Positions 8,275 through 47,257 of a stretch of DNA of 64,000 nucleotides are shown here, in pieces. A program made the translations under genes and the position numbers. Below the pieces are notes generated by a model. The model was not told the DNA's origin. It made no database searches and was given only the letters and a program-made list of their open reading frames with translations. The DNA comes from Verrucomicrobiia bacterium (lineage in GTDB: Bacteria; Verrucomicrobiota; Verrucomicrobiia; Palsa-1439), in NCBI GenBank assembly GCA_050013395.1, contig JBEKFI010000001.1, positions 1,004 to 65,003 of the forward strand. The letters run 5' to 3'. Every line of letters starts with the position of its first letter. Within the stretch, counting starts at the first letter, position 1.

Positions 8275-8295
8275 CGCGGTGTCGTTGTAGCCGCG

Positions 8296-8330
8296 CTTCC
8301 CTGCCCCGAAAGCTTTCGGGGTGAATGAAG
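8296..8330. repeat. Hairpin repeat module CCCCGAAAGCTTTCGGGG (inverted copy of 12015-12048)
   Basis: cttccctgccccgaaagctttcggggtgaatgaag is the reverse complement of cattcaccccgaaagccttcggggcagggagatg. Confidence 0.7.
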
Positions 8331-8413
8331 CGCGGGCCGTTCGGTTGCGGCGGGCGTTCGGCGCTTCGCAGAAGCGCCGCTACACGAGCAATGATTGCGT
8401 TCGCGCGTGCGGC

Positions 8414-8851
8414 TCATGCGGATTTCACCATCACTTCCCCGTTGACGACCATCACGCCCTGCTTGGCCAGCGGTCGCGGCGGCGGACCGGAAACGGGGCG
8501 GCCGTTGGTGTCGAAGAATCCCGCGTGACACGGACAAGCAATTTGCCGCCGCTGCGCATCCCAGCCAACGATGCAACCGAGGTGCGTACAGATGGCCGAG
8601 AACGCACCAAAACCCTGTGGCGTACGGATCACAATGACCGGATGCCCGTTGACGGCAACGATTTTCGTCTGCCATTCAGCGAAGTCCGCTGCCTTGCCCG
8701 CCGAAACCGTCTGCACACCGGGTCCTCGGCGCTGCGCCGGCCAGACGTAGCTGAGCACCGGCGCGGCGAACGCAATCGCCCATGCGATCAGGCCGCCGGT
8801 TAACAGCCAGTCCAGAAACGTGCGACGCGAAATCTTTTGATTCTCGTTCAC
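8414..8851 (-). CDS. Rieske [2Fe-2S] protein with Tat signal
   Basis: SRRTFL twin-arginine motif; CTHLGC...CPCHAG cluster-binding boxes. Confidence 0.85.
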   Translation of the reverse strand: MNENQKISRRTFLDWLLTGGLIAWAIAFAAPVLSYVWPAQRRGPGVQTVSAGKAADFAEWQTKIVAVNGHPVIVIRTPQGFGAFSAICTHLGCIVGWDAQRRQIACPCHAGFFDTNGRPVSGPPPRPLAKQGVMVVNGEVMVKSA

Positions 8852-8861
8852 GACATCAGTG

Positions 8862-8942
8862 TTCGCATTGTAGCCGCGAAACTTTTTCGCGGCATCCTCC
8901 CGCGACCCACGCCTCGGCCGCGAAAAAGTTTCGCGGCTACAG
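8862..8942. repeat. REP-like palindrome TGTAGCCGCGAAAC...GTTTCGCGGCTACA
   Basis: Long inverted repeat between the Rieske and cytochrome c genes. The same arm sequence occurs at 43740-43768 and inside hypF at 63874-63935. Confidence 0.7.
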
Positions 8943-16439: not shown

Positions 16440-17053
16440 CAACTTCAACATAATTCGGTTTTGATTTTTTCGATTGTAACTTCGCCATGCGTATCATGCA
16501 ATGGACGATGACTAATAGGAAACTGTTTTTGGAGCGCAGGGGAGCGAGACGGGGTCCGAACAGGGGGGTTATCAAAACGAAAAAGAGAGGCCGGTAACTG
16601 TGATCCTAGAATGTCCTCCGACTCCTGGCCCACGAGGTAACTGTCTCTGCCATGTAGGCGTCGGTGACTAACCGCGTCCATTTCCTCTCCCTGGTCGTGG
16701 TGTATAAACCCCGTGAGGTCGGGACAGCAAGCAGAAAAAGACCAAGAAGACCAAAGCGGGATGACCCGACCGTGCGTTTGCACTGAGGTTTTGGCGGACA
16801 ACTCAGCCGCCTTGAAGAAACCGCCGGGCTGCTTGGAGAAACTCGCGGGCAGTGCGCGGACATCTCGGCGCCATCACCAGCGGAGACACTAACCAATTTT
16901 CGTCGCAGCTTCGTCTGCAATCCGCTATTCGTTTAAGATGTTACCCTGAGTGGAGTGAAGGGTCTCGGTCGTCGGGAGGTTCGGAAACGGCAGAGATTTG
17001 CCGTCACACGACGGACGGCCCGCAGCGGTTTCGCCCGCCACTGGGGGATCAGA

Positions 17054-19645: not shown

Positions 19646-20020
19646 AAGACGTTCTTCATCAACCACGAAGTGCACAGCGCGGCAGAGCTGCAACCACAAC
19701 AACTACAATTGCCGCAAAGAGGCGCAAGGAACGCAAGAAACGGCGGGGCGGTTGCGGTCGTTTTCGTTCTTGCTGCTCAAACCCTGCCGGGCGTATTCTC
19801 GGCACCGTGAGGAAAGGAGATTTACCTCATTTTACGAGGCGAACGAACCAGGCGAACCAATAACTCAAAACCACCCCGAGAACTTTCGGGATGAAATTCG
19901 CGTAGCTTCGGCTGCTGTCCAGAAAGAAGCTTGGAGCTTTGTGACAACAAGCAGCGATGGAAGTGCGCCCCACTTTGTTTGGGCACAGGTGAACCCCACA
20001 AGTGCCAGAGGAGAACGGAT

Positions 20021-21925
20021 ATGAAAGCGCGTTCGAGGCTGATTGCGGCCAGCACGCTCATTTGTCTCATCGGCATTCCGGGTGTTTGTCAGGCTGCGCC
20101 CATACACGACGCGGCAGCGAACGGTGATCTTGCAGAGGTCGCGGAGTTTCTCAAGGCAAACACTTCGGTGGTGAATGCCCGAGATGCCGCTGAGCGGACG
20201 CCCCTGCATTATGCGGCGCTCAAAGGGCACAAGGAAGTGGCTGATCTACTCTTGGCCAACGGTGCTGATGCCAATGCTCGGTCCAGTGACGGCAGCACAC
20301 TGCTTCACTTAGCTGCCGGCAATGGTAATAAAGAAGTCGTAGAGGTCTTGCTCAGCAAGGGCGCTGATGCGCATGCCGAAGACGAATCGGGCAAGACCCC
20401 AGCGGTTCGTGCAGAGCAAGGAGGTCACGGTGATCTGGCCGGTCTGCTACTGGATTGCTTCACATTGAAAGAACTCCCTTCGGAGCGGAAAGAAGAAATT
20501 GATCGAGAACTTAGAAAATATGTCGGGGTCGACAAGGGCGAATCCCAAATCGTCGATGCCACCAATCTGGTATACAGTGTCTTTGGGTATTCCGAACAGG
20601 GTGATGAAGTCGACACGAAGACATACCGTTCGACGGGCAAGAAGGGACAAGTTTTCTACGGATACTACGTATCTATTGAGAAGATAAGGCCCGGCGAATC
20701 GATGGGTATAGTCGACGACAAAGGCGTGTTTCATCCCGCTATGAAAGTCGTGAAACACAAAGCGGTGGTGAGGGAGGACTCCGTGCTTTTTCTGAAGGAT
20801 AGTGAAAGGTATGTGTATCACAATGGACAATGGTATGTTTGTGCTAGGAAGGAGCGCGAGAAATCGAGCGCAGCAGCGCTTGATAGTGCAACTTTACGCG
20901 ACTCTCATCCGACTGGAAATGCAGCGGCGAAACCAATAGAGAAACAGACCGTGACTCTGATTGAGGTTCCTACGGGAATGAACGTAACAGAAGCGATAGG
21001 GTCCGGGGCAGGGAAACGCGAGGTAGGGCAGGCGCAGAGCACACCCAGCCAAGGTCGAACATTGGGCGAGTCCTATCTACTGAAAGGCACTCCCGTACAA
21101 TTGGGAAACCGAGTCTGGTTCAACTGGGTGCGGATACGCAAACAAACAAGCGATCAAGGTGAGCGAGCTTACCGGTTTTCCGTACCCGAAGGGCAGTTGG
21201 CGTACAAGTACCTCCAAGAGCATGATGGGCAGATACAAATAGCTGAGGTTTACCCGGGTGGGCGCAACGTATTCGAGATGCCGGAGATAGTGATCCGGGC
21301 AAAGCAAGTTTCGATCAACATGGAGACCACAGGCTTGAAACAGCAGATGGGACAAGACCTAATGCGCATTTTGAGCGAACAAGGACTGGTCAAGAACAAT
21401 GATCTGCTCGATGATGTGATCTTTGTCGCGGCTCGTTTCGCAAAGGTCGAAACAGACTTTGATGTCACTCACTGGATTCCGAAAGTCTCCCTTTCTTTTG
21501 AGTCGGCCAAACCTACCAGTGGCCTTTGGCCGAGGGATCAGGGACCTGCGGTACAAACCGCGTTCGAAGCGTGGCAGATGAGGTACTTCGGCTGTGCCAA
21601 CTGTCCACAGGCGGCGCCGGATGCCGATCCCGACCGCGACGGGATAAGCAACAGGAACGAATTTCTGGCGGGCACTGATCCGGGCAACGAGGCATCGTCG
21701 CTGCGGATCCTTTCCGCCGTGAGAAACGGCGATGACGTTGTGATCACGTGGAGGACGGTGGGAGGGAGGACCAACGTGTTGCAGGCCACGGCTGGCGACA
21801 CGAACGCGTTTATGGACATCAGCAAAGCTATCATCATCGCTGGCACCGGTGACATCGTGACCAACTACATCGACCGTGGTGGCATAGGTCTTCACAAGTA
21901 TTACCGAATCCGCATCGAACCTTAG
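20021..21925 (+). CDS. Secreted ankyrin-repeat protein with large C-terminal domain (DPDRDG calcium-binding-like motif)
   Basis: Signal peptide, then several ankyrin repeats with the TPLHxAA/GH consensus; the segment is lower in GC. Confidence 0.7.
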   Translation: MKARSRLIAASTLICLIGIPGVCQAAPIHDAAANGDLAEVAEFLKANTSVVNARDAAERTPLHYAALKGHKEVADLLLANGADANARSSDGSTLLHLAAGNGNKEVVEVLLSKGADAHAEDESGKTPAVRAEQGGHGDLAGLLLDCFTLKELPSERKEEIDRELRKYVGVDKGESQIVDATNLVYSVFGYSEQGDEVDTKTYRSTGKKGQVFYGYYVSIEKIRPGESMGIVDDKGVFHPAMKVVKHKAVVREDSVLFLKDSERYVYHNGQWYVCARKEREKSSAAALDSATLRDSHPTGNAAAKPIEKQTVTLIEVPTGMNVTEAIGSGAGKREVGQAQSTPSQGRTLGESYLLKGTPVQLGNRVWFNWVRIRKQTSDQGERAYRFSVPEGQLAYKYLQEHDGQIQIAEVYPGGRNVFEMPEIVIRAKQVSINMETTGLKQQMGQDLMRILSEQGLVKNNDLLDDVIFVAARFAKVETDFDVTHWIPKVSLSFESAKPTSGLWPRDQGPAVQTAFEAWQMRYFGCANCPQAAPDADPDRDGISNRNEFLAGTDPGNEASSLRILSAVRNGDDVVITWRTVGGRTNVLQATAGDTNAFMDISKAIIIAGTGDIVTNYIDRGGIGLHKYYRIRIEP

Positions 21926-22104
21926 CTGACAAGTTAGTCGAATGTCGAAAGGTTATTGTGAAAGAGATCGAGTCAAGCCAACCTCTTTGCATCACAGATC
22001 GTTCTCGGATGCCAGACGGGCGTTTCCTTTTCAGTGACTTTCTCTTGAACGTCCTCATCCACCGTCGCGTCGGCCGGACAGCCGGTTGGTGCGCTCGTTT
22101 TCTC

Positions 22105-22127
22105 TGATATATCGCCTAGCGATATAT
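22105..22127. promoter_or_regulatory. AT-rich palindrome gatatatcgcctagcgatatatc (candidate operator)
   Basis: An identical 23-mer recurs at 24653-24675. Confidence 0.4.
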
Positions 22128-22243
22128 CGTCGCTCAGAAGGTCGAGACAAGGACAAACACGCCTCGTTTTCACAACAGATCGGGCCGGCTCAAGAATTGT
22201 GTTTCGAGCGGATTGGCCCTGTGGCAATCTTGTGCAGGTACAC

Positions 22244-22492
22244 ATGAAAAGATTTGGTCACTATGCGATCAAGACGTTGCGGGTCACCAGTTGGCCGCTG
22301 CTGTTTTTGATGCTACTGTATTTGGTGACCGGATTCGCCATGAGCGGCCGGTTCGGGTTTGGAGTCCTGATGAACGAGAAGACAGCGCTTGCGTTTCACA
22401 AGGCGTTGCATGTGCCGTTGCTGATGTTGTTCCCGGTGCATGCTGTCTGCGCGGTTTATCTGGCGATGCGGAGATGGCGATGGATCAAATAG
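22244..22492 (+). CDS. Small two-TM membrane protein overlapping the start of the radical SAM gene
   Basis: Two hydrophobic helices; overlaps the next CDS by 19 bp. Confidence 0.45.
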   Translation: MKRFGHYAIKTLRVTSWPLLFLMLLYLVTGFAMSGRFGFGVLMNEKTALAFHKALHVPLLMLFPVHAVCAVYLAMRRWRWIK

Positions 22493-23817
22493 GGGAGAAT
22501 CCGAAATCGGAAATCCGAAGCCGAGCCACAGGCGAGACCTGCGCAGCAAATCCGAAACGGGTTGGGATCAGCCGGCGCGAGGCGATCGGGTACGGCGTTG
22601 CTGGTTTGGTCTGCCTGGCGGGAGCGAAAGGGCTGATCGACTATTTCCGGCGGTTCTTTGAGAGTGAGAGCCCCGCCGACATTTTCAAGGGCGACGCGCC
22701 GAGCGACGAAGTATGGGCGCTCTGGCAAAAGCGCGGTTGGACAAAAGAGGGTTACCACTACCTCAAGCTCGACCGCAACGTGCAGTGCAAGATCTGCCCG
22801 AACAATTGCATCCTCGCGCCCGGCGACCGCAGCCATTGCCGCAACCGGATCAACCGCAACGGCACGCTCCACACGCTGGCTTACGGCAACCCGTGCAGTT
22901 TTCACGTTGACCCGGTCGAGAAGAAACCGCTGTTCCATTTCCTGCCGGGCACCGCGTCGTTTTCGTTGGCGACCGCTGGTTGCGTGTTCCGTTGCCTGAA
23001 TTGCCAGAACTGGGAAATTTCGCAGAAGAAACCCGAGGAGACGAAGGACCCGCGCGGCCCGGAGTTTCGTTTGCGTCCGCCGGTCCCGGCGGCGTTGAGC
23101 ATGGAACAGATGGCGCGGCTGAGCATGTTCCCGGAAGACGTGGTGGCACTGGCCGGTGAACTGCGCTGTCCTTCGATTTCCTACACTTACTCCGAGCCGG
23201 TTGCCTTTTACGAGTACACGTACGACACGTGCAAGCTCGCCCGTGAGAAGAAAATCAGGAACATCATGGTGACGTGCGGCTCGATCGAAGAGCGGCCGCT
23301 CCGCGACCTGGCTCAATACGTGGACGCCGCACATGTTGATCTGAAGGGATTCGATGAGGACGTTTACTGGAAGCTGAACACAGGACGGCTCAAACCGATT
23401 CTCAACACCTTGAAGACGCTTCAGGACATGGGCGTGTGGTTTGAGATCATCAACCTCGTTGTCCCAACCTATACCGACAAACCGGACACAATCGCGCGGA
23501 TGTGTGATTGGCTGGTGGCGAACATCGGTCCGGATCATCCGATTCACTTCTCCCGGTTCCACCCCGCGCACAAACTCGAACACCTGCCACCGACGCCGGT
23601 GGAAACGCTGTTGCAGGCGCGCGCCATCGCGCAAAAGGCCGGCCTGCGCTACGTGTACGTCGGTAACGTCCGCGGCGTGCCCGACGTCGAAACCACGTTC
23701 TGCCCCGGCTGCAAACGCGCCATCATCGAACGCGACGTGTTTGCCATCACGAGCTTCAACATCGAAGCCGGCCACTGCAAGTTCTGCCAGACCAAGATTG
23801 CCGGCGTGTGGTCGTGA
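22474..23817 (+). CDS. AmmeMemoRadiSam system radical SAM enzyme with ~88-aa N-terminal extension containing an RR/hydrophobic (Tat-like or anchor) segment
   Basis: YHYLKLDRNVQCKICPNNC...GTLHTLAYGN and ATAGCVFRCLNCQNW (CxxxCxxC). The N-terminus reads SRREAIGYGVAGLVCLAGAKG. Part of the extension is encoded by a GAAATCCGAAA-type repeat. Confidence 0.75.
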   Translation: MAMDQIGENPKSEIRSRATGETCAANPKRVGISRREAIGYGVAGLVCLAGAKGLIDYFRRFFESESPADIFKGDAPSDEVWALWQKRGWTKEGYHYLKLDRNVQCKICPNNCILAPGDRSHCRNRINRNGTLHTLAYGNPCSFHVDPVEKKPLFHFLPGTASFSLATAGCVFRCLNCQNWEISQKKPEETKDPRGPEFRLRPPVPAALSMEQMARLSMFPEDVVALAGELRCPSISYTYSEPVAFYEYTYDTCKLAREKKIRNIMVTCGSIEERPLRDLAQYVDAAHVDLKGFDEDVYWKLNTGRLKPILNTLKTLQDMGVWFEIINLVVPTYTDKPDTIARMCDWLVANIGPDHPIHFSRFHPAHKLEHLPPTPVETLLQARAIAQKAGLRYVYVGNVRGVPDVETTFCPGCKRAIIERDVFAITSFNIEAGHCKFCQTKIAGVWS

Positions 23818-35921: not shown

Positions 35922-37817
35922 TTACGCGAAATCCATGTCGTAGTGATACACGTCGCCGCTGAGCGCGCTACGGACCTTGCAATTGCTCTTGCTGATGACC
36001 GCCTGCATGGCCCGGTTGTCGCGCAGAACCTCGGCGGTGAACCCGCTGATGCCGTTGCGTCGCGCGATCCGCGCGAGATAATTGAGCAGGAACGTGCCGA
36101 TACCGCGCTTCTGCCATTTGTCGTCCACGACGAAGGCGACTTCCGCGCGGTTGGTTTTCGGGTCGAGATAATAACTGCCCATGGCGATGATGTCTTCGCC
36201 GTGCGCGGCGGGCAACGTGCCGACGATCGCCACTTCATTGCGGTGGTCGATATAGACGAAGTCTTCGATCTGCCGCCGGGGAACGCGCGTCATGTTGCTC
36301 ATGAAGCGGTAGTAAATGGTCTGCTGCGACAGGTTGTAGAACAGGTCCCGCATCAGCGGCTCGTCGGTCGGATGGATCGGGCGGAAGTTGATTTGCGTGC
36401 CGTCGTTCAACAGATAGCTGGTGCGCAGTTCCTTGGGGCCGATGATGATCTTGCCTTCCTTGGCGGCCATCTCGGCGGAGAGGTACTTGGTCTCGATGGC
36501 TTCGCGCAGCAGTTGGGCGCGGAACTTCGGATGGGCGATACTGATCAACGCCATGGCCCGCTCCTTGACGCTCTTGCCATGGAGGTACGCCACGCCGTAC
36601 TCGGTGGCCACGTAATGCACGCCCGCCCGTGTCGTCACGACGCCGGCACCGGGGCTGAGGCGTGTCACGATGCGCGAGACGGTGCCACCGCGCGCGGTGG
36701 AGGGCAACGCGATGATGGCTTTGCCGCCGTGCGCCTTCGCAGCGCCACGGTTGAAGTCCACCTGGCCGCCAACGCCGGAGAAAAACTTCGTGCCGAGCGA
36801 GTCGGCGCAGACCTGGCCGGTGAGATCGATCTCCAAGGCAGTGTTGATCGCCACCATCTTGTGCTGTTGGCTGATGATCGACGGATCGTTGACGTACTCG
36901 GTCGGCCGAAATGAAAACACAGGGTTGTTGTCGATGTAGTCGTAGAGTTTGCGCGTCCCGAGGCAGAAGCTTGCCACGACCTTGCCCCGGTCCAGCGTCT
37001 TGCGGGCGCCGGTGATGACGCCGGCCTTAACCAGGTCCACGATACCGTCGGTGAGCATCTCGGTGTGAATGCCGAGGTCTTTTTTGCACTTCAGAAACTG
37101 CAACAACGAATGCGGGATGCGTCCGATTCCAAGCTCGATCGTGGAACCGTCCTCGATCAGCGCCGCCACGAATTCGGCGATCCGTTCCGCCTCCTCAGTG
37201 TCCTCCACGTAGGGAACCTCGAGGATCGGTTCCTCCGACGGCACCAGCGCGTCCAGGTCGTAGACGTGGATGAACGTGTCGCCCAGCGTGCGCGGCATGT
37301 TGGGGTTGACCTCGGCGATGACGAGCGAGGCGTTTTCCGCTGCGCTCTTGACGATGTCCACCGACACGCCGAGGCTGCACATTCCATCTTCGTCCGGCGG
37401 CGACACTTGGATCAACGCGGCGTCGAGCGGCAACTGCCCGGAGTTGAACAGCCGCGGAATGTCCGACAGGTGAATCGGCGTGTAGTCGCCCAACCCTTCC
37501 TGGATGATGTTCCGCACGTTCTCCGCGATGAAGAAACTGTTCACGCGAAAGTACTGGCTCATCTCCTTGTGCGCGTACGGCGCTTCGCCGAAGGTCAGCA
37601 GGTGCAAAATCTCGGTGTCGGGCAGCTCGGTGGCGCGGTTGGTCAGCGCGCGCACCAGTTCCAGCGGCTCGGCGCAGCCCGTCCCGATGAACACGCGATG
37701 GCCGGGCCGCAGCTTCGCGACCGCTTCCGCCGCCGTCGCGATGGACACCTTGTATTTCTCTTTCCAGTTCGGGTCGTAGCTGGGTCGCTTCTCAGTCATG
37801 GTGATGTCCGTCCACAT
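35922..37817 (-). CDS. Acetyl-CoA hydrolase/transferase-family protein fused to a C-terminal GNAT acetyltransferase domain
   Basis: N-terminal CoA-transferase fold, then a C-terminal GNAT core (VAFVVDDKWQKRGIGTFLL). Confidence 0.75.
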   Translation of the reverse strand: MWTDITMTEKRPSYDPNWKEKYKVSIATAAEAVAKLRPGHRVFIGTGCAEPLELVRALTNRATELPDTEILHLLTFGEAPYAHKEMSQYFRVNSFFIAENVRNIIQEGLGDYTPIHLSDIPRLFNSGQLPLDAALIQVSPPDEDGMCSLGVSVDIVKSAAENASLVIAEVNPNMPRTLGDTFIHVYDLDALVPSEEPILEVPYVEDTEEAERIAEFVAALIEDGSTIELGIGRIPHSLLQFLKCKKDLGIHTEMLTDGIVDLVKAGVITGARKTLDRGKVVASFCLGTRKLYDYIDNNPVFSFRPTEYVNDPSIISQQHKMVAINTALEIDLTGQVCADSLGTKFFSGVGGQVDFNRGAAKAHGGKAIIALPSTARGGTVSRIVTRLSPGAGVVTTRAGVHYVATEYGVAYLHGKSVKERAMALISIAHPKFRAQLLREAIETKYLSAEMAAKEGKIIIGPKELRTSYLLNDGTQINFRPIHPTDEPLMRDLFYNLSQQTIYYRFMSNMTRVPRRQIEDFVYIDHRNEVAIVGTLPAAHGEDIIAMGSYYLDPKTNRAEVAFVVDDKWQKRGIGTFLLNYLARIARRNGISGFTAEVLRDNRAMQAVISKSNCKVRSALSGDVYHYDMDFA

Positions 37818-39903
37818 TGGCCAAGGTCATGCGCGCGTCGGCCAGGTAAGCCCCGGTGCCCACCTCGCCGACAATGAAGGGATTGATGTCCAGCTCCGTA
37901 ATCTGCGGATAGTCGGTTGCCAGTTGGCTGATGCGTTGCAGCCCGCTGGCCACCGCCTCCAAGTCCACCGCTGCCTGACCGCGCGCGCCTTTGAGCAGCG
38001 CGTAGGAGCGCGTGCCCTTCAACATCTGCATCGCCTCCTCGGCGGTGATCGGCGCCAGGTAAAACGTCACGTCCTTCATCACCTCGACGAAGATGCCGCC
38101 CAAGCCGAACATCAGCATCGGCCCGAACTGCGGATCGCGGGTCATGCCGAGAATAACTTCGCGGCCCTGCGACCCCATCTTCTCGACGTACGCGCCGCGG
38201 ATGTGGGCGTCGGGAGCGAGGCGTCGGATGCGCAGCATCATCAGGTCGAACGCGTCGCGCACCTGCTCGGCGTTGGCGAGACTGATCCGCACACCGCCGA
38301 CGTCGGACTTGTGGATGATGTGCGGCGACACGATCTTCATCACCACCGGATAGCCGATCCGGTCGGCGGCGTCCACTGCCTCGTTGGCATTGCGGGCCAG
38401 ATGGCCGGGCAACACGTTGAAATCGTAAGCTCGCAGGATTTCCTTCGCCTCCACTTCGCCGACCTGACGGATGCCCATCTTCACGTGCCAGTTGATCACC
38501 CGGTCCACGCGGTGGCGGTTGACGGGGAAACGCGTGACCACCCGCGGCGGCCGGCGCCGCCACGCCGCGTAATCCTGCATCGCCTGCAGCGCGCCGACCG
38601 CTCGTTCGGCGGACGGATAGCTCGGGATGTTCAGCGCCATCAGCCGCTCCCGCGCCGGAATCACTTCGCTGCCGCCGAGAAACGCGGCCAGCAGCGGCTT
38701 TTGGCCGCGGTGCGCCTTCGCCAGTTTCTCCGCCAGCTCCAGCGGCCGCGTCATGTTCTGCGGCGTCACCACCACGATGATGCTGTCAATCGTGTCGTCC
38801 TCCTGCACGATCTCGAACGCCTTGACGTAGCGGTCGGGATCGGCGTCGCCGATGACATCGATCGGATTGCCGACCGCCGCTGCTGCCGGCAGACATTCGC
38901 GGAGTTTTTTGCGCGTCGGCTCGGCCGGTGTGACCATTTTCAGCCCGGCGGTCTCCGCCGCGTCGGCGGCCATGATGCCCGGGCCGCCGGCGTTGGTGAT
39001 CACCGCCACGCGGTTGCCGCGCGGCAACGGTTGCATCGCCAGCGCGATTGCGTAATCGAACAGCGCCTCGAAGTTCTCGGCACGGATCACGCCCGACCGT
39101 TTGAAGGCGGCACCGTAAGCCATGTCGGCCCCGGCGAGGCTACCGGTGTGCGACGAAGCCGCCTTCGCGCCCGCCTGCGTGACGCCGACCTTCAGGACTA
39201 CGACCGGTTTGCGCGACGCGGCTTGTTCGGCGACCTGCAGAAACTTGTTCCCTTCGGTGATGTTCTCCAGGTAACCGACGATGACACGCGTGTCGTCATC
39301 CTCGGCCAGCGCCTGCAGGAAATCCACCTCATTGAGGTCGGCCTTGTTGCCGAAGCTGATGACTTTGCCGAGGCCCATCTTCAAATTCATCGCCAGGTCC
39401 AGGATCGCCACGCACAGCGCCCCCGACTGCGAGATCACCGAAATCCGGCCGCTGGGCGGCATCATCGGCGCGAACGTGGCGTTCATCTTGTGGCTCGTGT
39501 TGATGATGCCGATGCAGTTCGGCCCCATCAACCGCACGCTGTTCGCCTGGCACAGTTCCGCGATCTCCCGCTCCAGCGCCGCGCCTTCCGGGCCGACCTC
39601 CTTGAAGCCGGCTGTGATGACGACCACCGCCTTCGCCTTGGCGTCAATGGCGCTCTGGATCGCGTCCTTCACCGCCTTCAGCGGCACGACGACGATGCCG
39701 AGATCAACGCGGCCGGGAAAATCCTTCAAATCGTGGTAGCACTTGCGGCCGAGAACCTGGTCGGCATTGGGATTGACCGGCACGATCGTGCCTTGGTAGC
39801 CGCCGTTGATCAGATTGGCAACCACCTCGTGACCGACTTTGCCCGGCGTTCGCGACGCCCCCAGCACCGCGATGGTCTGAGGACTCAAGAGTGATTCAAG
39901 CAT
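37792..39903 (-). CDS. ADP-forming acetyl-CoA synthetase (fused alpha/beta; NDP-forming acyl-CoA synthetase)
   Basis: CoA-binding domain IAVLGAS, succinyl-CoA-synthetase-like and ATP-grasp regions; 703 aa. Confidence 0.8.
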   Translation of the reverse strand: MLESLLSPQTIAVLGASRTPGKVGHEVVANLINGGYQGTIVPVNPNADQVLGRKCYHDLKDFPGRVDLGIVVVPLKAVKDAIQSAIDAKAKAVVVITAGFKEVGPEGAALEREIAELCQANSVRLMGPNCIGIINTSHKMNATFAPMMPPSGRISVISQSGALCVAILDLAMNLKMGLGKVISFGNKADLNEVDFLQALAEDDDTRVIVGYLENITEGNKFLQVAEQAASRKPVVVLKVGVTQAGAKAASSHTGSLAGADMAYGAAFKRSGVIRAENFEALFDYAIALAMQPLPRGNRVAVITNAGGPGIMAADAAETAGLKMVTPAEPTRKKLRECLPAAAAVGNPIDVIGDADPDRYVKAFEIVQEDDTIDSIIVVVTPQNMTRPLELAEKLAKAHRGQKPLLAAFLGGSEVIPARERLMALNIPSYPSAERAVGALQAMQDYAAWRRRPPRVVTRFPVNRHRVDRVINWHVKMGIRQVGEVEAKEILRAYDFNVLPGHLARNANEAVDAADRIGYPVVMKIVSPHIIHKSDVGGVRISLANAEQVRDAFDLMMLRIRRLAPDAHIRGAYVEKMGSQGREVILGMTRDPQFGPMLMFGLGGIFVEVMKDVTFYLAPITAEEAMQMLKGTRSYALLKGARGQAAVDLEAVASGLQRISQLATDYPQITELDINPFIVGEVGTGAYLADARMTLANVDGHHHD

Positions 39904-40032
39904 GGTGTTCGTTCTCCAACATACGGGGAAATGCTATTTAGTGAGAAAAGTCACTTGCTGTCAAGGCGCGCCCGACACTGAACAAAATGTTGGATGCTGA
40001 GTCAGACTCGAATGCTCCTTCTGGCGAGGGCA

Positions 40033-41286
40033 TCACTTGGTGGCGCACTCGGCAACACTGATGGCCAGCACATCTCCACCAACCTCTGGAAGTGCGCCGA
40101 GAGTCGAGCTAGGCAGATAGTTTTGCTTCACCAACAGCGCCGCATACTTCGACCCCATGTGGGTGCGGCTCGTCCACATTCCGCGGCCATTTATTCTTGT
40201 GTAGGGCGGGAAGGTCAGCGGCTGGATGTACCACGCATTCGTGTAGGCGTAAATGATCACGCGATACTTTGATCGCTCTTTGACAGGCAACCTGTAAATG
40301 TTGCCACTGATCTTGGTGGGAGAAAACGCGATCGCTCCGCAGCGTGCGGCCTGCTGAATTTCAATCAGCGGGGGCGGAGAATCGAAGAACGCCCGAACAC
40401 ACGGTTTCATAACCCTGTTCGTGGTCAGGAGGCCCCAGTGGGCTTCCACCTCAACGCCAGAGAACTCCTGTTTCCACTGCTCGTCGTAGGCCTCGAAAAG
40501 AAAGTACGGGACATTGCTGGCCGTAGCAAGGGCCACGAAATCATGGAGAAACCTGCACAGGTTTTCTTCGCTGGGCACAGCGTCCTCTTTGGTATCGCCG
40601 GCGGTAGGCCAGCCGGTTTCACCAATGACCACCGTCTTGTTGGTGTACGTATTTTTCACTTCCTGCCAGCGCCTGTAAACATGCTGCGCCGCATTTTTGA
40701 CCGAGACGCCATCGTGATAGGGGTGGATGTGAACGAGAAGAACATCGACAACGTCGGCGACCTCAGGATGTTCCAGCCACTCGTCCCATGTATCGGCACT
40801 GCCAACAGGCAACGTTGTGGCAGCTTTCACCTGCTTGATAAGGTTGGTGAGTTCCTCGACAGAAGGGTTCCCGCTATACAACACTTCATTGCCGACGATG
40901 AGCGCCGCCGGCTTGCTCCTGTGTGCCACACGGAGCAGCCGCTGAATCTCAACTTGATTCGCATTGGTGTCCGTGCCGACCCAGGCTCCTGCATAACATT
41001 GTAGTCCGCGCTTGCCGGCCAAGCCGGGTATGTCTACGAGCGTGCTAAAGACCGAGTAGGTGCGAACGCGCTGCGTCGGTGGCTTTAGCTGACCGAGATC
41101 TGCGCTGATTTCACTACTCGTTGGATAGACCCCGGTTGGATTTTGCCCGTTTCGGAAAGGGCCGTAGCACAAACCTTGAACACGAAGCACAAGGTTTGTC
41201 AGCTTCTGTTGACCGTCCGCTCGCGGCATCGTGACCAACAAAGTGGCAAGTGCAATCAAAAAGGTCGCGTTGTTCTTCATTGTCAT
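40033..41286 (-). CDS. Secreted glycoside hydrolase family 17 (endo-1,3-beta-glucanase-like) with extra C-terminal domain
   Basis: Signal peptide; VVIGETGWP GH17 catalytic signature; lower-GC DNA. Confidence 0.7.
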   Translation of the reverse strand: MTMKNNATFLIALATLLVTMPRADGQQKLTNLVLRVQGLCYGPFRNGQNPTGVYPTSSEISADLGQLKPPTQRVRTYSVFSTLVDIPGLAGKRGLQCYAGAWVGTDTNANQVEIQRLLRVAHRSKPAALIVGNEVLYSGNPSVEELTNLIKQVKAATTLPVGSADTWDEWLEHPEVADVVDVLLVHIHPYHDGVSVKNAAQHVYRRWQEVKNTYTNKTVVIGETGWPTAGDTKEDAVPSEENLCRFLHDFVALATASNVPYFLFEAYDEQWKQEFSGVEVEAHWGLLTTNRVMKPCVRAFFDSPPPLIEIQQAARCGAIAFSPTKISGNIYRLPVKERSKYRVIIYAYTNAWYIQPLTFPPYTRINGRGMWTSRTHMGSKYAALLVKQNYLPSSTLGALPEVGGDVLAISVAECATK

Positions 41287-41434
41287 TCCTCCATGCTCTT
41301 TGATAGGGAGCGTGAATTTGGGGCCATCTTGTCATCCAACGATTGCTCCGCTTGGGCAACGGCCTTGGCTACACTGCGCTCACGCTGCGCACGGCGCTCG
41401 AACCGTTCGACGGTGGCGCTGACGCTCTTGCCGT

Positions 41435-42192
41435 TCAAGCCTCCGTTTCTTGAATCAGCCGGTAGCGACGAATGTCGAGAACCGACACCTTGGCAAGATC
41501 CGTGGCAGGCTCGAACTCCACGCAAGCGAACAGATCAGGCGCTTGGCGAATGACAGCAATGGGGCGACAGATTAGCTTTGGGTACTTGGCTTTGGCAAAG
41601 AGAGTAAGCGCCACCGCTTTGTCAACGCCGAGCGCCTCGCGGGTATCCTTTGCTTCCATCGGCAACACATAAGCCTGACCGTTCTTGTCGACGCCGACAT
41701 ACAGGTCATCCACTTCGATTTGTCCATGGCCTCGAACTTGGGTACGGACGTGCGACTGGAGGTGAAAGCAGGCCAAGCCGGTGAATACGTCCAGAAGTCG
41801 ATTGTAGCGAACGATTGTGAGAAGCCCTTGTTCATCCTGCGCCAGATTTGCGGCCACAATCTCAGGCACTGCGTAGGGAATCGGATAGATTTTTATGTGA
41901 TCAGGGATTTCGACCGTCGGTGCGCCCTTTACCGCAACGAATGCGTACTTTCCTGGACCCCTCGATGCAATCACCCAATTGCCTTTGGCACGCAACGCTT
42001 CAGGAAGTGCGCTCCGAGATCGGTAGGTGTAAAGAATGTCTGCGATATTCTTGATTCGCAATCCGATCGCCGAGGCCGCGTCGATCAAATCATCCTTTGT
42101 GAACGGGACTTCTTTGCTACCCGCCCGCCAGCGTTTCCCGAATACCGATGTCAGGACTTTATCGTAGGCATTTGAAGGCTGCGATTTGCGCA
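41435..42192 (-). CDS. Candidate Type II restriction endonuclease (PD-(D/E)xK-like)
   Basis: IEVDDLYVGVD...PMEAKD fits the D...(D/E)xK pattern. The ATG overlaps the TGA of the upstream methyltransferase (ATGA). Confidence 0.5.
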
Positions 42193-42194
42193 TC

Positions 42195-43554
42195 AGCGTT
42201 TCTCCAAGATTAGAACCTCTTCGCGTACACGAGTGCCGCTCTTCGTCCCAAAGCGTGTCCTCCACGGGTCACAGGCCATCGTTTTGAATCCGTGCGCCTC
42301 CGCGATCTCGGCCAAGAGCGAGGCTGTGGGAACTGGTACGAGTAGAAACGAAAGTTGGTCGCCGACCACATATGCACAGCGCGACCTTGCCTTCAATTTC
42401 GCCCGAAGCGCCTCGAAGTGGCGAGCCATTCCACCGAAGTAGTGGGCAACGACGCGATGGTACAATCGCTCAAATCCAGAAGTCTTGCCCAACTCCTCCC
42501 GTCTCTTCTCGATGGCATGACAGATTCCCTGAATCCTCGTGTTGCCCTTCACCCATTCGCCATCTTGGTCATCGACAAAAACGTTGCGCGTGTTGCTGCG
42601 CAGCAGCGATTGTTTTACGCTCCGCAGTTGCTTTCGGTCGCGGATCAGGCCTAGCAGCACAGACTCAACGCGCGTCAGTCGAGTGTAATCCTTCTCGTTG
42701 GGGTAAGGAGGAGAGCAGATTACGGCGTCACAACTGTTAGCTTCCAGACCATCAAGAATCCGGGCGTCGCCGTCCAACACACTACACGGGCAAAAACGCC
42801 GGTGAGCGGCTTGGATCTGGCGCAAATCGCGTATCATCGTATCAACCTGCAAGGCGAAATGGCCCAGCACGTCATAATCGTCCTTGGCTTTAGTGCGATA
42901 TATCTCAGGCCCAAAAGCAAAGTTGCCAGCACCATTAACAACGACATGGCAAAGCGCCAGCCGAAAGAAATCCAAAATAGAGTGATCGTGTTCCGCAGTC
43001 TCGTCTTCGATCCCGGCTCGAAGAAATAACAATCGACGCAGGGGTTTCTGACTCAGGAACCCCTCCGGGATTAGCTTTATTTCGTCTTCGGTCAGAATCG
43101 GCTGGTTCGCCACCATTCTCCCGAGAAGGCTTGGAGCGTCGAAGCCTGCCCTCGCCATTTCCCGCCCCGCCCGCCTGTGAATCTTCTGCGCCAATTCGCC
43201 GAGCAAGTCCACTGGCAAATCCCAGCACGTTTTCACCTTTGAGGCCAACACCGCGATCGGGTGAGCGTCAATGCCAATCGCAGAGATGCCGTTCTTGCGG
43301 CACTCCACCAAGGTTGTGCCTGCTCCACAAAACGGATCGAGCATGACATCGTGTTTTCCAACGGAAAACGCTTCGAGGTATTTCCTTACTAGGTGCGGCG
43401 GGTACGAGAGCACAAGCCGATACCAGTCATGGATTGGCCGATCCTCCTTGAGAACAACGTTCGGATTCTCGGTGTCTCCGTTAACTAAGTACTGGGCAGA
43501 AATCTGCACTGCGGTCGCGGGCATTCTCGCTCCTTTGCGAATCGTTGGCAGCAT
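42195..43554 (-). CDS. DNA methyltransferase (FxGxG motif I, SPPY motif IV; N4-cytosine or N6-adenine)
   Basis: DPFCGAGTT and CSPPYPNEKDY motifs. Confidence 0.8.
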
Positions 43555-43916
43555 AGCAAAGCGAAGCGGTCAGAGCAAAAGGAAAAGCCCACACACATTT
43601 CTGCCTGCAGGCTTTTGGAAATTAACCCAGCAGTGACCTGCTCTCGCGCAAGCTGGACAGGCACTACCATCGGCACCGCACGCGCCGTGTGCGATCGTCA
43701 CCGTACTCCTTCTGGTGCCGTTGTGTAGCGGGAGGGACGCACCGCGAAATCGTTTCGCGGCTACAAGCCCGACGCCCGGCCATGGATTCGAGCGTGTTGC
43801 GGCGGATGGGATTGGGAATTGACAGGGCGGGCGGAATTTGCTGGAATGCCGCGCGTAGTTGTCACCCCGGCCCGAAGAATAATCGCAAAATACTAATAGC
43901 AGGAGAATATAAAACA

Positions 43917-45899
43917 ATGACGGAGCAGAAGACCCCAATCTCAACCGCCTCGTTGATGACGGAGAAGCGCACGTTCCCGCCTTCACCCGAAGTCGTGAAG
44001 CGCGCGCACATCAACGCTGCCCAGTACCAGAAGATGTACGAGCGTTCGATCAAAGATCCCGACGGATTCTGGCTCGAACAGGCGCAGACCTTGGACTGGT
44101 TCAAGAAGCCGACGGTCAGCCGCAAGTACATTTGGAACGTCGACGCGCGCAAGGTCGAGCACACCTGGTTTGAAGACGGCACGTTGAATGTCACCGTCAA
44201 CTGCCTTGATCGTCACCTCAAAACGAAGAACCGCAAGAAGGTGGCCATCCTGTGGCAGGGCGAGCCGGAGCAGGACGTGCGCAAGATCACCTACGAGCAA
44301 CTGCACGCCGAAGTCTGCAAGTTCGCCAACGTGCTGAAGGCGCACGGCGTCAAGAAGGGTGATCGCGTGGCGATTTATCTGCCCATGATTCCGGAGTTGC
44401 CGGTGGCGATGCTGGCCTGTGCGCGGATCGGGGCGATTCACTCGGTCGTGTTCGGCGGGTTCAGCGCGGAATCGCTGGCGGGCCGGATCAACGATTCGGA
44501 ATGCAAACTGCTGGTTACCTCGAACGTGTCGCTGCGCGCCGGCAAACATATCAAGCTGAAGGACATCGCCGACCAAGCGGCGGCGAAATCGCCCTCGATT
44601 CAGAAGATCATCGTCGTCCAACGCAACCCGGAGCCGTGCAACATGGTGGCGGGGCGCGACGTGTGGTATCACGATGAAATGGCCAAGGCGAAGACCGAGT
44701 GCCCACCCGAAGTGATGAAGGCCGAAGACATGCTGTTCATTCTCTACACGTCCGGCTCGACCGGCAAACCCAAGGGCGTGGTGCACACGACCGCGGGTTA
44801 CCTGCTGCACTGCGCGGTCAGCCACAAGTACATTTTCGATATCCACGACGATGACACGTTCTGGTGCACCGCCGACATCGGCTGGGTGACGGGCCACAGC
44901 TACATCGTTTATGGCCCGCTGTGCAACGGCGCGACCAGCGTGATGTTTGAAGGCGTGCCGACCTGGCCCGATGCGGGCCGGTTCTGGCAGATCGTGGAGA
45001 AGTTCAAGTGCACGGTATTCTACACGGCGCCGACGGCGATCCGCGCGTTGATCCGCCAGGGCGATGAATGGCCAAAGAAGCACGACCTTAGTTCGTTGCG
45101 CGTGCTCGGTTCGGTCGGCGAACCGATCAATCCCGAAGCGTGGATCTGGTACTACAAGATGATCGGCAAGGAGCGGTGCCCGATTGTCGATACCTGGTGG
45201 CAGACCGAAAACGGCGGCATCCTCATCACACCGCTGCCCGGCGCTCACGTGACCAAGCCGGGCAGCGCCTCGCAGCCGTTCTTCGGCGTGGAGCCGGTGA
45301 TTTTGCGCGACGACGGCACTGAATGCAGTCCGAACGAGGGCGGCAAACTCTGCATCAAGAAGCCGTGGCCCGGCATGTTCCGCACGATGTGGGGCGATCA
45401 CGACCGGTTCATTGACACGTACTTCACGCTGTACAAGAATCTGTACTTCACCGGCGACGGCTGCCGTCTCGACGAAGATGGCGATTACTGGCTGATGGGC
45501 CGCGTTGATGACGTCGTCAACGTCTCCGGCCATCGCATCGGCACGGCGGAAGTCGAAAGCGCGCTGGTCAGCCACCCGAAGGTCGCCGAGGCCGCCGTGG
45601 CGCCGACGCCTCACGACATCAAAGGGCAGGGGTTGTATGCGTTCGTCACGCTGAAAGACGGTGTCAAGGAGAGCGATGATCTCCGGAAGGAACTGGCGAA
45701 CCACGTTCGCAAGGAGATCGGTCCCATCGCCGTGCCCGACAAGATCCAGTTTGCGCCGGCCTTGCCGAAGACGCGATCGGGCAAGATCATGCGCCGCATT
45801 CTGCGCAAGATCGCCGAGAACCAGGTGGACCAGATTGGCGATACCACGACGCTGGCCGACCCGCACGTCGTCGAATTGCTCGTCAAGAACCGCCTGTAA
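43917..45899 (+). CDS. acs: Acetyl-CoA synthetase (AMP-forming)
   Basis: [12 protein letters not shown]-loop; start set at MTEQKTP within the longer ORF. Confidence 0.9.
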
Positions 45900-45926
45900 G
45901 CCGGTCGTCAACAACGAACAACCTGA

Positions 45927-45970
45927 ATGAGCCGGACCGATCCACAAGATGCGCGTCCGGCTCATTCACT
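45927..45970 (+). terminator. Perfect 14-bp stem hairpin after acs
   Basis: tgaatgagccggac ... gtccggctcattca. Confidence 0.35.
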
Positions 45971-45985
45971 TCTGGAGGCATATCG

Positions 45986-47257
45986 ATGTCTGAGCAGAAT
46001 GTGATCGCAGTGGACAAGACCAGCAGTATCCAGCCGGCGGTGAAGAACCTTGGCTGGACCGTGACCTTTGCCGGCATGGGCATCAACCTTGCCCTCGGGG
46101 TTCTTTACACCTGGAGCATGTTCAAGGGGGCAATCGAGAAAGAGTACGGCTGGAAAGGTTCCCAGCTTAACGACCCATATGCCCTCTGTTGCCTGGCCTT
46201 CGCCTTTGCAATGATCCTGGCGGGACGATGCCAGGACAAGCTCGGGCCGCGTCTCACCGCGTCCATCGGCGGCCTGCTCGTGGGCGCGGGGATGGTGCTC
46301 ATTTCGCGCACGACGAGCTACGGCGTCTGGCTGCTGGGCTTCGGAGTGTTGGTGGGTATGGGCATTGGTTTCGGCTACTCGTCCGCCACGCCGCCCGCGT
46401 TGAAGTGGTTTCCGCCGTCGAAGACCGGCCTGATCGCCGGGCTTGTGGTGGCGGGTTTCGGTCTGGCGCCGGTGTACCTTGCGCCGACCTCGCAGTATTT
46501 GCTGAATCATTACCAACTCGGAGGCTCAATGTTGATCTTCGGCATCGCGTTCGTGGTGATTGTATGCGGCCTGGCGCAGTTGCTGGTGAATCCGCCGCCG
46601 GGCCACGGCGCGGGACCGAAGCCGTCGCCCGGAGCGGCCGCAAAACCGGCCGCCGTCAATTCGACGCCGGGCGAAATGCTGCGGATGCCGACATTCTGGC
46701 TGCTCTGGATCATCTACTTCATCGGCGCGGGCGCAGGGCTGATGGTGATCAGCAGCGTCAGCGGCATGGCCAAGAAGAGCATGAAGGACATGGCGTTCGT
46801 GGCCGTGGCCGTGATGGCCATCGGCAACGCTGCCGGGCGTGTCGCGGCGGGCATATTGTCCGACAAGATCGGCCGCCGCTGGACGTTGATGATCGTGCTG
46901 TTGTTCCAGGCCGTGCTGATGTTCATCGCCATTCCGGTGACCGCCTCGATGGACACGGTGCCGGTGGTCATCGTGCTCGTGGCGACGTTGATCGGCTTCA
47001 ACTACGGCGCGAACCTATCGCTGTTCCCATCGTACGCGAAGGATCTGTGGGGCTTGAAGAGTTTCGGGATGAACTACGGCATCCTGTTCACCGCGTGGGG
47101 CGTGGGTGGCCTCGTCCTGAGCCGGCTGCAACAGACGCTCACGGCGGCGAGCAAGGGCAGCTATCATTCATCGTTCGTGGCTGCGGGCGTGTTGCTCATC
47201 ATCGGCGCCGCGTTGACGTTCCTCATCAAGCCGCCGCACCGCGCGGCAGTGGTATAG
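45986..47257 (+). CDS. MFS transporter, OFA (oxalate/formate antiporter) family; candidate organic-acid or acetate carrier
   Basis: 12-TM MFS architecture with an OFA-like N-terminus; lies directly downstream of acs. Confidence 0.7.
   Translation: MSEQNVIAVDKTSSIQPAVKNLGWTVTFAGMGINLALGVLYTWSMFKGAIEKEYGWKGSQLNDPYALCCLAFAFAMILAGRCQDKLGPRLTASIGGLLVGAGMVLISRTTSYGVWLLGFGVLVGMGIGFGYSSATPPALKWFPPSKTGLIAGLVVAGFGLAPVYLAPTSQYLLNHYQLGGSMLIFGIAFVVIVCGLAQLLVNPPPGHGAGPKPSPGAAAKPAAVNSTPGEMLRMPTFWLLWIIYFIGAGAGLMVISSVSGMAKKSMKDMAFVAVAVMAIGNAAGRVAAGILSDKIGRRWTLMIVLLFQAVLMFIAIPVTASMDTVPVVIVLVATLIGFNYGANLSLFPSYAKDLWGLKSFGMNYGILFTAWGVGGLVLSRLQQTLTAASKGSYHSSFVAAGVLLIIGAALTFLIKPPHRAAVV

Follow-up and report, generated by a model that had tools for sequence, protein, structure and literature searches.

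Gene organization of the locus

Three open reading frames (ORFs) lie on the minus strand at positions 40033–43554 of the window, by which we mean the whole 64,000-nucleotide stretch of DNA analysed here. They encode a GH17 enzyme, a 252-aa protein and an amino-methyltransferase, and all three are located where an earlier note, made from the sequence alone, had placed them. The public gene calls for the same contig agree on the 252 aa of the second protein, but put the methyltransferase at 443 aa and the GH17 enzyme at 415 aa.

The longest ORF of the methyltransferase gene (M) extends to 43554 and counts 453 aa. The start at 43524 (M11), which yields a gene of 443 aa at 42193–43524 (minus strand), is favoured by the alignment of homologues and by an AGGAG placed 7 nt upstream. 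The candidate nuclease gene (R) occupies 41435–42193 (minus strand, 252 aa). Its start is the ATG at 42193, according to the family alignment; a 276-aa version with a GTG start was rejected because the homologues begin at the ATG.

The junction between the two genes (42191–42205, minus strand) was read directly from the sequence. It consists of a GGAG (42202–42205) located 8 nt 5′ of the nuclease ATG, followed by TGATG. The stop codon of the methyltransferase (42193–42195) and the nuclease ATG (42191–42193) have one base in common, the single A in cgcTGATGcgc. The overlap proposed in the earlier note is thus real and 1 nt long, although its form is TGATG and not the ATGA that had been reported. 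While M and R overlap, the GH17 and nuclease genes are separated by a gap of 148 bp. None of the neighbouring genes encodes a Type I or Type III subunit (HsdS, HsdR, Res), an ATPase or a helicase. The locus thereby presents separate, adjacent M and R genes without specificity, translocase or ATPase subunits, as in a Type II system. A controller (C) protein was also considered and discarded, as no plausible small HTH ORF is present 5′ of M.

The methyltransferase

Both motifs previously reported for the methyltransferase were recovered. With residues given alongside the 453-aa ORF, motif I (FCGAG, of the FxGxG form) is at aa 75–79 (43318–43332, minus strand) and motif IV (SPPY) at aa 281–284 (42703–42714, minus strand). 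Across 15 methyltransferase homologues, DPFCGxGTT and SPPYPNEKDYT are invariant. The Pfam model PF01555 matches aa 51–99 only. Several PADLOC MTase_II profiles match, the best of them being PDLC03224 (E=2.8e-33), and the match to PDLC03306 (E=3.3e-30) covers the full length. The protein is 100% identical to a public entry named ‘MAG: DNA methyltransferase [Verrucomicrobiia bacterium]’ (P0121).

SPP(Y/F) is typical of enzymes producing N4-methylcytosine (m4C), and (D/N)PP(Y/F) of those producing N6-methyladenine (m6A). The methyltransferase combines a motif IV of the former type with an FxGxG motif I, so on motif grounds its most likely target would be the N4 of cytosine; SPPY favours m4C without proving it. 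The region of about 200 aa between motifs I and IV presumably recognises the target.

The nuclease

The 252-aa protein matches the PADLOC profile PDLC03404 (REase_II, ‘Type II restriction enzyme’) with E=3.9e-61, aa 7–251 aligning to positions 3–249 of the 260 of the profile. This places it in a recognised family of Type II restriction endonucleases (REases). No match was found in Pfam, NCBIfam or the PDB, the last searched both with the single sequence and with a family profile. The family is large (about 1,200 clusters at 50% identity), and its public cluster names are just ‘endonuclease’ or ‘hypothetical protein’; the NCBI name for this very protein is ‘endonuclease’. The earlier description of an uncharacterised endonuclease therefore holds as far as Pfam and NCBIfam models and solved structures are concerned, and fails in that the protein is catalogued in PADLOC and named at NCBI.

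An AlphaFold (AF2) model of the protein has a pLDDT of 94.3 and a pTM of 0.89. In its N-terminal part (aa 7–87; 41933–42175, minus strand) the secondary-structure elements follow the order H7–21, E28–32, H33–42, H50–60, E73–77, E82–87. From this topology we infer a winged helix, which is presumed to be the DNA-recognition module. Four invariant residues (N49, D52, Y55 and R60) are on or beside its third helix.

The C-terminal domain (aa 111–247; 41453–41863, minus strand) is predicted, on the basis of the model, residue conservation and Foldseek, to be a PD-(D/E)xK catalytic domain. The model shows a helix at 121–130 carrying E121, strands at 141–153, 157–168 (with D162) and 174–182 (with E180 and K182), a helix at 190–203 and a strand at 212–218. 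This corresponds to an alpha-beta-beta-beta-alpha-beta core with a conserved acidic residue on strand 2 and a conserved (D/E)xK on strand 3. The predicted catalytic codons, all on the minus strand, are at 41831–41833 (E121), 41708–41710 (D162) and 41648–41656 (E180-A-K182). The D...EAK motif noticed before is thus real, being D162...E180-A-K182. Among 40 homologues, down to 37% identity, E121, D162 and K182 never vary, and position 180 is occupied by E or Q.

The Foldseek search of the PDB returned AdnA, ACE1/Cas4 (probability 0.98), NucS/EndoMS, EcoO109I and HincII, and nearly all the better matches are PD-(D/E)xK nucleases. These matches are weak (best E=4e-3, best-match TM 0.2–0.27), so what supports the fold assignment is the motif, the topology and the agreement among the hits, and not any single strong match. 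With this qualification, structure prediction agrees with the nuclease-like fold that had been suggested.

The GH17 neighbour

The third gene (40033–41286, minus strand) is an ORF of 417 aa, or 415 aa from the ATG at 41280, and its product matches PF00332 with 65 bits against a cut-off of 28.2. It also matches 4wtp (RmBgt17A, the GH17 beta-1,3-glucanosyltransferase of Rhizomucor miehei) with E=6e-34 over aa 48–297. Both catalytic glutamates of the family are in their motifs, GNEV at aa 132–135 (E134) and GETGWP at aa 222–227 (E223), and the N-terminus, read by eye, resembles a signal peptide. A secreted, beta-1,3-glucan-active GH17 enzyme does therefore adjoin the pair, as had been described. 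The earlier note called the family mostly eukaryotic; GH17 is nevertheless common in prokaryotes, and many of the 522 metagenomic or genomic homologues found are bacterial or archaeal.

A strain-specific block

The three genes, together with about 160–190 bp 5′ of the methyltransferase gene, form a block of 3,743 bp (39972–43714) that is missing from the closest relative, L007. Indeed, blastn of the window’s own contig against L007 shows flanks that are 92–96% identical and, in place of the block, 349 bp of unrelated sequence. The neighbours of the block are the acs gene and the gene of an ADP-forming acetyl-CoA synthetase (ACD), which are adjacent also in L009, a more distant relative.

The AT-rich character of the block noted earlier is real and larger than expected by chance. 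Its GC content is 0.553, compared to a mean of 0.595 (sd 0.018) in same-sized windows elsewhere in the analysed stretch (z=−2.4). The contrast is much sharper in GC3, which is 0.59–0.66 in the three genes of the block and 0.84–0.86 in the four flanking genes. A search of the edges found no convincing direct or inverted repeats flanking the block and no tRNA gene, and no integrase, transposase or other mobility gene is present within it. The block is thus an islet by its absence from the same site in the closest relatives and by its deviant composition, without the hallmarks of a mobile element.

The absence from L007, the adjacency of acs and ACD in L009 and the foreign GC3 support horizontal acquisition of the block. 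A deletion in L007 instead of an insertion here was considered, and rejected as less parsimonious given the adjacency in L009 and the foreign GC3.

Conservation of the M-R pairing

In all eight other chromosomal loci examined (8/8), M is located directly 5′ of R. The stop and start codons overlap or abut in L003, L087, L088, L089, L091, L096 and L097, and are 17 nt apart in L004. These loci belong to different phyla and unrelated contexts, and never include GH17; the pairing is therefore conserved as a unit across unrelated contexts. The possibility, raised in the earlier note, that the methyltransferase is an orphan can be dismissed, as a member of the nuclease family lies immediately 3′ of it at each of these loci. 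Furthermore, two plasmid loci carry a C5-cytosine methyltransferase directly upstream of a nuclease of the same family, and single polypeptides exist in which the nuclease domain is fused to either type of methyltransferase.

Recognition site and prototype enzyme

We compared Markov-expected with observed counts for all 4- and 6-bp palindromes and several interrupted 5-mers, both in the window alone and in 131 kb of loci carrying restriction-modification (R-M) genes against 1.36 Mb of related control loci. Palindrome under-representation in the 131 kb of R-M-carrying DNA is no different from that in the 1.36 Mb of control. CTAG, GTCGAC, CAGCTG, CTCGAG and GGGCCC are depleted equally in the controls, so no recognition site can be inferred from their depletion.

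Pfam, NCBIfam, the PDB and the literature on the plasmids, searched by size and accession, gave no name of a characterised prototype enzyme. Oliveira et al. 2014 (PMC4176335) built no Type II REase profiles, so the PADLOC profile must have another origin.

Interpretation

Altogether, we conclude, with a probability of roughly 85%, that the block carries a self-contained Type II R-M module of orthodox layout, with M followed by R and the two translationally coupled. This conclusion draws on how the genes are built and arranged, on their motifs and profile matches, on the predicted fold, and on the observations that M and R stay together across loci and that the block is specific to this strain. 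The candidate Type II system of the earlier note gains its support from the PDLC03404 match, the predicted nuclease fold and the conserved M-R pairing.

In the mechanism that we propose, the methyltransferase would bind S-adenosylmethionine via motif I (DPFCGAGTT) and, via motif IV, would methylate an exocyclic amino group within a short DNA target of defined sequence. The nuclease would read the same target sequence, probably through its N-terminal winged-helix-like domain, and would cut unmethylated DNA with a Mg2+-dependent active site of the PD-(D/E)xK type, made up of E121, D162, E180 and K182, probably as a homodimer on a palindromic site. The methylated base, recognition, dimerisation and cleavage are steps that we infer. 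R starts on the last base of the stop codon of M, so it is translated only downstream of M, an order that would help the host DNA to be protected before any cutting. The module would have been brought by horizontal transfer into the intergenic region between acs and the acetyl-CoA synthetase (ADP-forming) gene of this strain. The GH17 gene is part of the same indel and would be functionally unrelated, and its joint arrival is only a possibility.

One alternative keeps the same R-M module and changes the product of the methyltransferase, which would be N6-methyladenine instead of N4-methylcytosine. PF01555 covers both N6-adenine and N4-cytosine enzymes, and the weak NCBIfam and PDB matches include the adenine methyltransferases CcrM, DpnA and MboIIA; nevertheless, the SPPY of motif IV is invariant in the family, and the alternative partners of the nuclease family are C5-cytosine methyltransferases, which suggests a protective cytosine if specificity is conserved across the family. 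Taken together, these last two points direct the protected base to cytosine, and we consider an adenine product unlikely. A more radical alternative is that of an RNA methyltransferase (tRNA/rRNA guanine-N2, Trm11/RlmKL-like), in which case the pair would not be directed at DNA. We regard this as highly improbable: the matches to PF01170 (E=2e-4, below the cut-off), TIGR01177 and archaeal Trm11/Trm14 structures are weak and all confined to about 20–70 residues around motif I, whereas the profiles matched over the full length are those of Type II DNA methyltransferases, and bona fide C5 DNA methyltransferases can take the place of this enzyme beside the partner nuclease family.

The 252-aa protein, on the other hand, could be something other than a restriction enzyme within the PD-(D/E)xK group. 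It might be a nuclease that depends on methylation, like Type IV enzymes, or one that serves repair or mismatch correction, like NucS, or else a DNA-binding regulator without activity that travels with methyltransferases. Classical restriction enzymes are indeed not its closest solved folds, which are Cas4, AdnA and NucS; every structural match is weak, and no Pfam or NCBIfam family names it. Against this stand a curated Type II REase profile, which it matches strongly over its full length, and its position: at every locus examined it lies immediately 3′ of a DNA methyltransferase, of one chemical class or the other, and it is sometimes fused to one. Moreover, the conservation of the catalytic residues argues against an inactive regulator, and translational coupling of a methylation-dependent nuclease to a methyltransferase would be self-destructive, so we find these options very unlikely as a group. 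Hardly credible is a single functional unit of GH17, nuclease and methyltransferase, such as a glucan-related operon in which the methyltransferase has a regulatory role. The three genes do lie on one strand and within a single indel with respect to the closest relative, and they resemble each other in GC and GC3, but GH17 is missing at all ten other loci with the nuclease family (10/10), a 72%-identical GH17 homologue has unrelated surroundings that contain no R-M pair, and the 148-bp gap between the GH17 and nuclease genes is set against the overlap of M and R. Participation of GH17 in the R-M system was accordingly rejected; it is a neighbour of the pair, not a partner.

The Type II R-M module is a modest gain, consisting of one intact, strain-specific system in an uncultured peat or soil lineage of Verrucomicrobiia; the islet is real yet ordinary, and holds nothing surprising for a specialist. 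Its interest lies in the clean presence/absence difference of the R-M pair between near-identical strains, which is relevant to gene-flow barriers and phage defence in that population. The nuclease is already known as a catalogued family, without a Pfam or NCBIfam model, a solved structure or a traceable recognition sequence. This family is widespread, and occurs on small plasmids that are very common in Klebsiella, Salmonella and E. coli, so one characterised member would annotate many genes, and a useful enzyme with sensitivity to both m4C and m5C might come of it. It is also conceivable, if quite unlikely in our judgement, that the family is a structurally new Type II arrangement, with a compact winged-helix recognition domain and a PD-(D/E)xK core without a close solved relative, and that the Verrucomicrobial clade, with its permuted SPPY methyltransferase, reads an uncatalogued site, which would make it a new prototype enzyme.

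Comparison with known systems

RmBgt17A aligns with the GH17 enzyme of the window over a catalytic domain of about 250 aa, and the latter carries the glutamate motifs GNEV and GETGWP. The window enzyme differs by a bacterial-type signal peptide and by an extra C-terminal domain of about 115 aa without a family match, and its close relatives are prokaryotic metagenomic proteins.

The methyltransferase has motif I FxGxG and motif IV (S/D/N)PPY in common with the beta-class N6/N4 enzymes of PF01555 (2zie, a putative modification methylase of T. thermophilus; M.MboIIA, 1g60; CcrM, 6pbd), and would share with them a SAM-dependent amino-methyltransferase chemistry. Unlike the beta-type PF01555 model, it is circularly permuted, with the order motif I, about 200 aa, motif IV, and its motif I (aa 75–79) aligns to the C-terminal end of the model. 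Only about 50 of its residues align to any solved structure.

The nuclease has the core fold in common with ACE1/Cas4 (9iac), AdnA (6ppr), NucS/EndoMS (2vld and 5gkj), EcoO109I (1wtd) and HincII (1kc6), and here too strands 2 and 3 bear the acidic residues and the lysine. The similarity is remote (E from 4e-3 to 0.5, TM 0.12–0.27, 8–18% identity) and is not visible at the sequence level, even by family profile; furthermore, the winged-helix-like N-terminal domain is found in the window nuclease and not in these solved enzymes. PDLC03404, conversely, has the same length and domain span as the window nuclease, and carries neither an enzyme name nor a recognition sequence.

The plasmid relatives are encoded by ColE1-type plasmids of 4.3–6 kb from Klebsiella, Salmonella and E. 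coli (e.g., NZ_CP083635.1) and by p12374 of Paracoccus seriniphilus, which has in addition a Vsr mismatch endonuclease and an HTH gene. They are found on mobilisable plasmids in proteobacterial hosts, whereas the pair described here resides in a chromosomal islet. They are paired with a C5-cytosine methyltransferase, which has PF00145-type motifs and 3g7u as its best PDB match, unlike the amino-methyltransferase of the window. Their nucleases are 35–39% identical to the window nuclease over 95–100% of the length, and the arrangement is the same as here, with M followed by R and an overlap between the two.

Conserved pairing of the methyltransferase with a PD-(D/E)xK-like nuclease

The islet (window positions 39972-43714) holds three minus-strand open reading frames (ORFs): a GH17 protein (417-aa ORF, 40033-41286), the 252-aa protein (from its ATG, 41435-42193), and a methyltransferase (453-aa ORF, 42193-43554). 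On the public copies of the contig (ENA k141_574967 and one Logan contig), the genes are called at 415, 252, and 443 aa, respectively. The sequence supports 43524 (M11) as the probable methyltransferase start, because homologues start there and AGGAG lies 7 nt upstream. The earlier note described an ATGA overlap between methyltransferase and nuclease genes; the actual junction is cgcTGATGcgc, in which stop and start codons share a single base, and the nuclease ATG is preceded by GGAG 8 nt upstream. The protein motifs it named were located: FxGxG (FCGAG, aa 75-79) and SPPY (aa 281-284) in the methyltransferase and, in the 252-aa protein, D...EAK (D162 and E180-A-K182).

Even at E up to 1, neither Pfam nor NCBIfam had a model matching the 252-aa protein or any of 40 aligned family members, and searching the PDB with the sequence and with a profile gave only chance-level matches. 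Conversely, the PADLOC profile PDLC03404 (“Type II restriction enzyme”) aligned aa 7-251 with its positions 3-249 of 260 (E = 3.9e-61), and NCBI labels the protein “MAG: endonuclease [Verrucomicrobiia bacterium].” Thus, its description as an uncharacterised endonuclease stands for Pfam, NCBIfam, and PDB, but the family was already in PADLOC and named by NCBI. A word-indexed search returned 135 matches, and an exhaustive HMM search of 50%-identity cluster representatives 1,182 (E up to 1e-3) or 808 (E up to 1e-10). Neither public cluster names nor the literature on plasmid relatives led to a named prototype enzyme.

The AlphaFold2 model obtained from the 40-member alignment had a mean pLDDT of 94.3 and a pTM of 0.89. 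Residues 111-247 are modelled as a helix, three strands, a helix, and a strand, the PD-(D/E)xK core, with the predicted active site formed by E121 (first helix), D162 (strand 2), and E180 and K182 (strand 3). Among the 40 aligned proteins, the most distant of them 37% identical, E121, D162, and K182 never vary, and only E or Q occurs at position 180. The order of elements in aa 7-87 (helix, strand, helix, helix, strand, strand) suggests, from topology, a winged-helix-like domain; the invariant N49, D52, Y55, and R60 lie on or beside its third helix. Foldseek neighbours in the PDB were weak (best E = 4e-3, TM 0.2-0.27), and nearly all of the better ones were PD-(D/E)xK nucleases (AdnA, ACE1/Cas4, NucS/EndoMS, Cas4, EcoO109I, HincII, and Exo5). 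The modelled core and these matches argue against a non-nuclease fold, which would have undermined the nuclease assignment.

In the methyltransferase, PF01555 covers only aa 51-99, aligned to the C-terminal (motif I) end of the model, and SPPY follows about 200 residues C-terminal to this region. The motif order is therefore I, insert, IV, permuted relative to this beta-type Pfam model. Strong matches came from PADLOC “Type II methyltransferase” profiles (full-length for PDLC03306, E = 3.3e-30), while tRNA guanine-N2 methyltransferase matches are weak and limited to the SAM-binding motif. Fifteen relatives, with identities as low as 43%, all share DPFCGxGTT and SPPYPNEKDYT unchanged. Among amino-methyltransferases, SPPY points to N4-cytosine, which suggests this base as the target.

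We examined eight other chromosomal loci with a homologue of either protein (L003, L004, L087, L088, L089, L091, L096, and L097), in mutually unrelated neighbourhoods. They come from Verrucomicrobiota and an Ignavibacteriae MAG, and one has a dsr-gene context. A nuclease family member lies directly downstream of the methyltransferase in all eight, which argues against an orphan methyltransferase; in seven, the methyltransferase stop codon overlaps or abuts the nuclease start, and in L004 17 nt separate them. L091, the locus with the dsr-gene context, is the only one examined with a mobility-related gene close by, an IS605 OrfB/TnpB (Cas12f-like) gene (7578-8927) about 0.8 kb downstream of the pair.

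Plasmid relatives of the nuclease (35-39% identity) lie directly downstream of C5-cytosine methyltransferases. The family occurs on very common, mobilisable ColE1-type plasmids of 4.3-6 kb in Klebsiella, Salmonella, and E. coli (64 records in PLSDB, one of them the 4,267-bp L005, NZ_CP083635.1), and the cluster from these plasmids is present on at least 1,000 contigs. Candidate fusions of 686-735 aa, either putative single polypeptides or read-through calls, join an N-terminal methyltransferase, of N6/N4 type in P0384 and P0391 (686-730 aa) and of C5 type in P0389 and P0399 (700-735 aa), to a C-terminal nuclease domain. Such alternation of the nuclease between SPPY amino- and C5-cytosine methyltransferases would be expected if it were a restriction enzyme and cytosine the protected base of its site.

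On the small plasmids, the C5 methyltransferase gene (416 aa) overlaps that of a 269-aa nuclease family member, labelled only “hypothetical protein” or “endonuclease”; the methyltransferase gene spans the record origin and is missing from the gene table. These plasmids thus look like carriers of an under-annotated restriction-modification (R-M) system. On the Paracoccus seriniphilus plasmid p12374 (L006, 1758-4774), the cassette is fuller and includes repair of damage from m5C deamination: an HTH regulator gene is followed by those of a Vsr mismatch endonuclease, a C5 methyltransferase, and a nuclease of the family.

Composition and origin of the islet

The block is more AT-rich than its surroundings, as the earlier note had it: windows of the same size elsewhere average a GC of 0.595 (sd 0.018), and the block has 0.553 (z = -2.4). 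The contrast is sharper in GC3, which is 0.66, 0.59, and 0.63 for GH17, nuclease, and methyltransferase, and 0.84-0.86 for the four flanking genes. Relatives were sought, one genome per species, using as query the 703-aa ADP-forming acetyl-CoA synthetase encoded beside the islet. The closest (L007, Verrucomicrobiia MAG “SPRUCE 690”), with flanks 94-97% identical in protein and 92-96% in nucleotide sequence, has an unrelated 349-bp stretch in place of the 3,743 bp of the block; in a more distant relative (L009), acs and the synthetase gene are also adjacent and divergent. Insertion in the window's lineage is the most parsimonious reading. No integrase, transposase, target duplication, terminal inverted repeat, or tRNA was found at the islet edges. 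Within the 349-bp stretch, L007 9746-9799 matches window 8327-8380 (54 nt, 76% identical), and may be a short dispersed repeat.

By gene content, the islet lies in an acetate/acetylation neighbourhood (35922-39903 and 43917-47257; locus L001), with acs (AMP-forming), an MFS transporter and, further on, a histone-deacetylase-family gene. The gene of the 703-aa synthetase-like protein overlaps that of a 631-aa acetyl-CoA hydrolase/GNAT acetyltransferase, a pair kept across about 80 Verrucomicrobiota loci. A second, equally GC-poor patch (about 0.55, 18600-23500) contains ankyrin-repeat (19931-21925, plus strand) and radical-SAM (22213-23817, plus strand) protein genes, downstream of a spermidine-synthase-domain protein gene (16955-19645), and may be another acquired segment.

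GH17 membership of the neighbour, a putative secreted beta-1,3-glucanase, was borne out: it clears PF00332 (65 bits against 28.2), aligns over 250 residues with the Rhizomucor beta-1,3-glucanosyltransferase 4wtp (E = 6e-34), retains GNEV and GETGWP, and has a signal-peptide-like N-terminus. The earlier note called the family mostly eukaryotic, but metagenome bins of bacteria and archaea contain many homologues (522 matches), making a prokaryotic GH17 unremarkable. Sharing the indel and the foreign composition, it was possibly co-acquired with the R-M genes. A functional link is not supported: the pair was never seen next to GH17 at the other loci examined, and a 72%-identical homologue sits in a different gene context. 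The C-terminal tail of about 115 aa (aa ~303-417, 40033-40380), without a Pfam match, is kept in the closest full-length homologues (P0242 and P0243, 72-77% identity), and may represent a domain, so far undescribed, for carbohydrate binding or anchoring.

Proposed mechanism and comparison with known systems

In the proposed mechanism, the methyltransferase would methylate its own site, probably at N4 of cytosine, and the nuclease would be translated only after it, via the TGATG junction. The nuclease would then bind the same site through its winged-helix-like domain, presumably as a dimer on a palindrome, and cut unmethylated DNA at a putative E121/D162/E180/K182 metal site. A comparison of palindrome avoidance between R-M-carrying and related control loci gave no recognition site. 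The loci recovered by a metagenome scan were too few for statistical treatment.

The predicted fold, the PDLC03404 match, and the pairing agree with the candidate Type II R-M system initially proposed. The pair is an ordinary, probably active Type II module in a small acquired islet, and any gain from it would be limited to novelty in its specificity or in the architecture of its recognition domain. The nuclease is a new member of a family already catalogued among restriction enzymes, yet undescribed in structure and biochemistry as far as we could determine.
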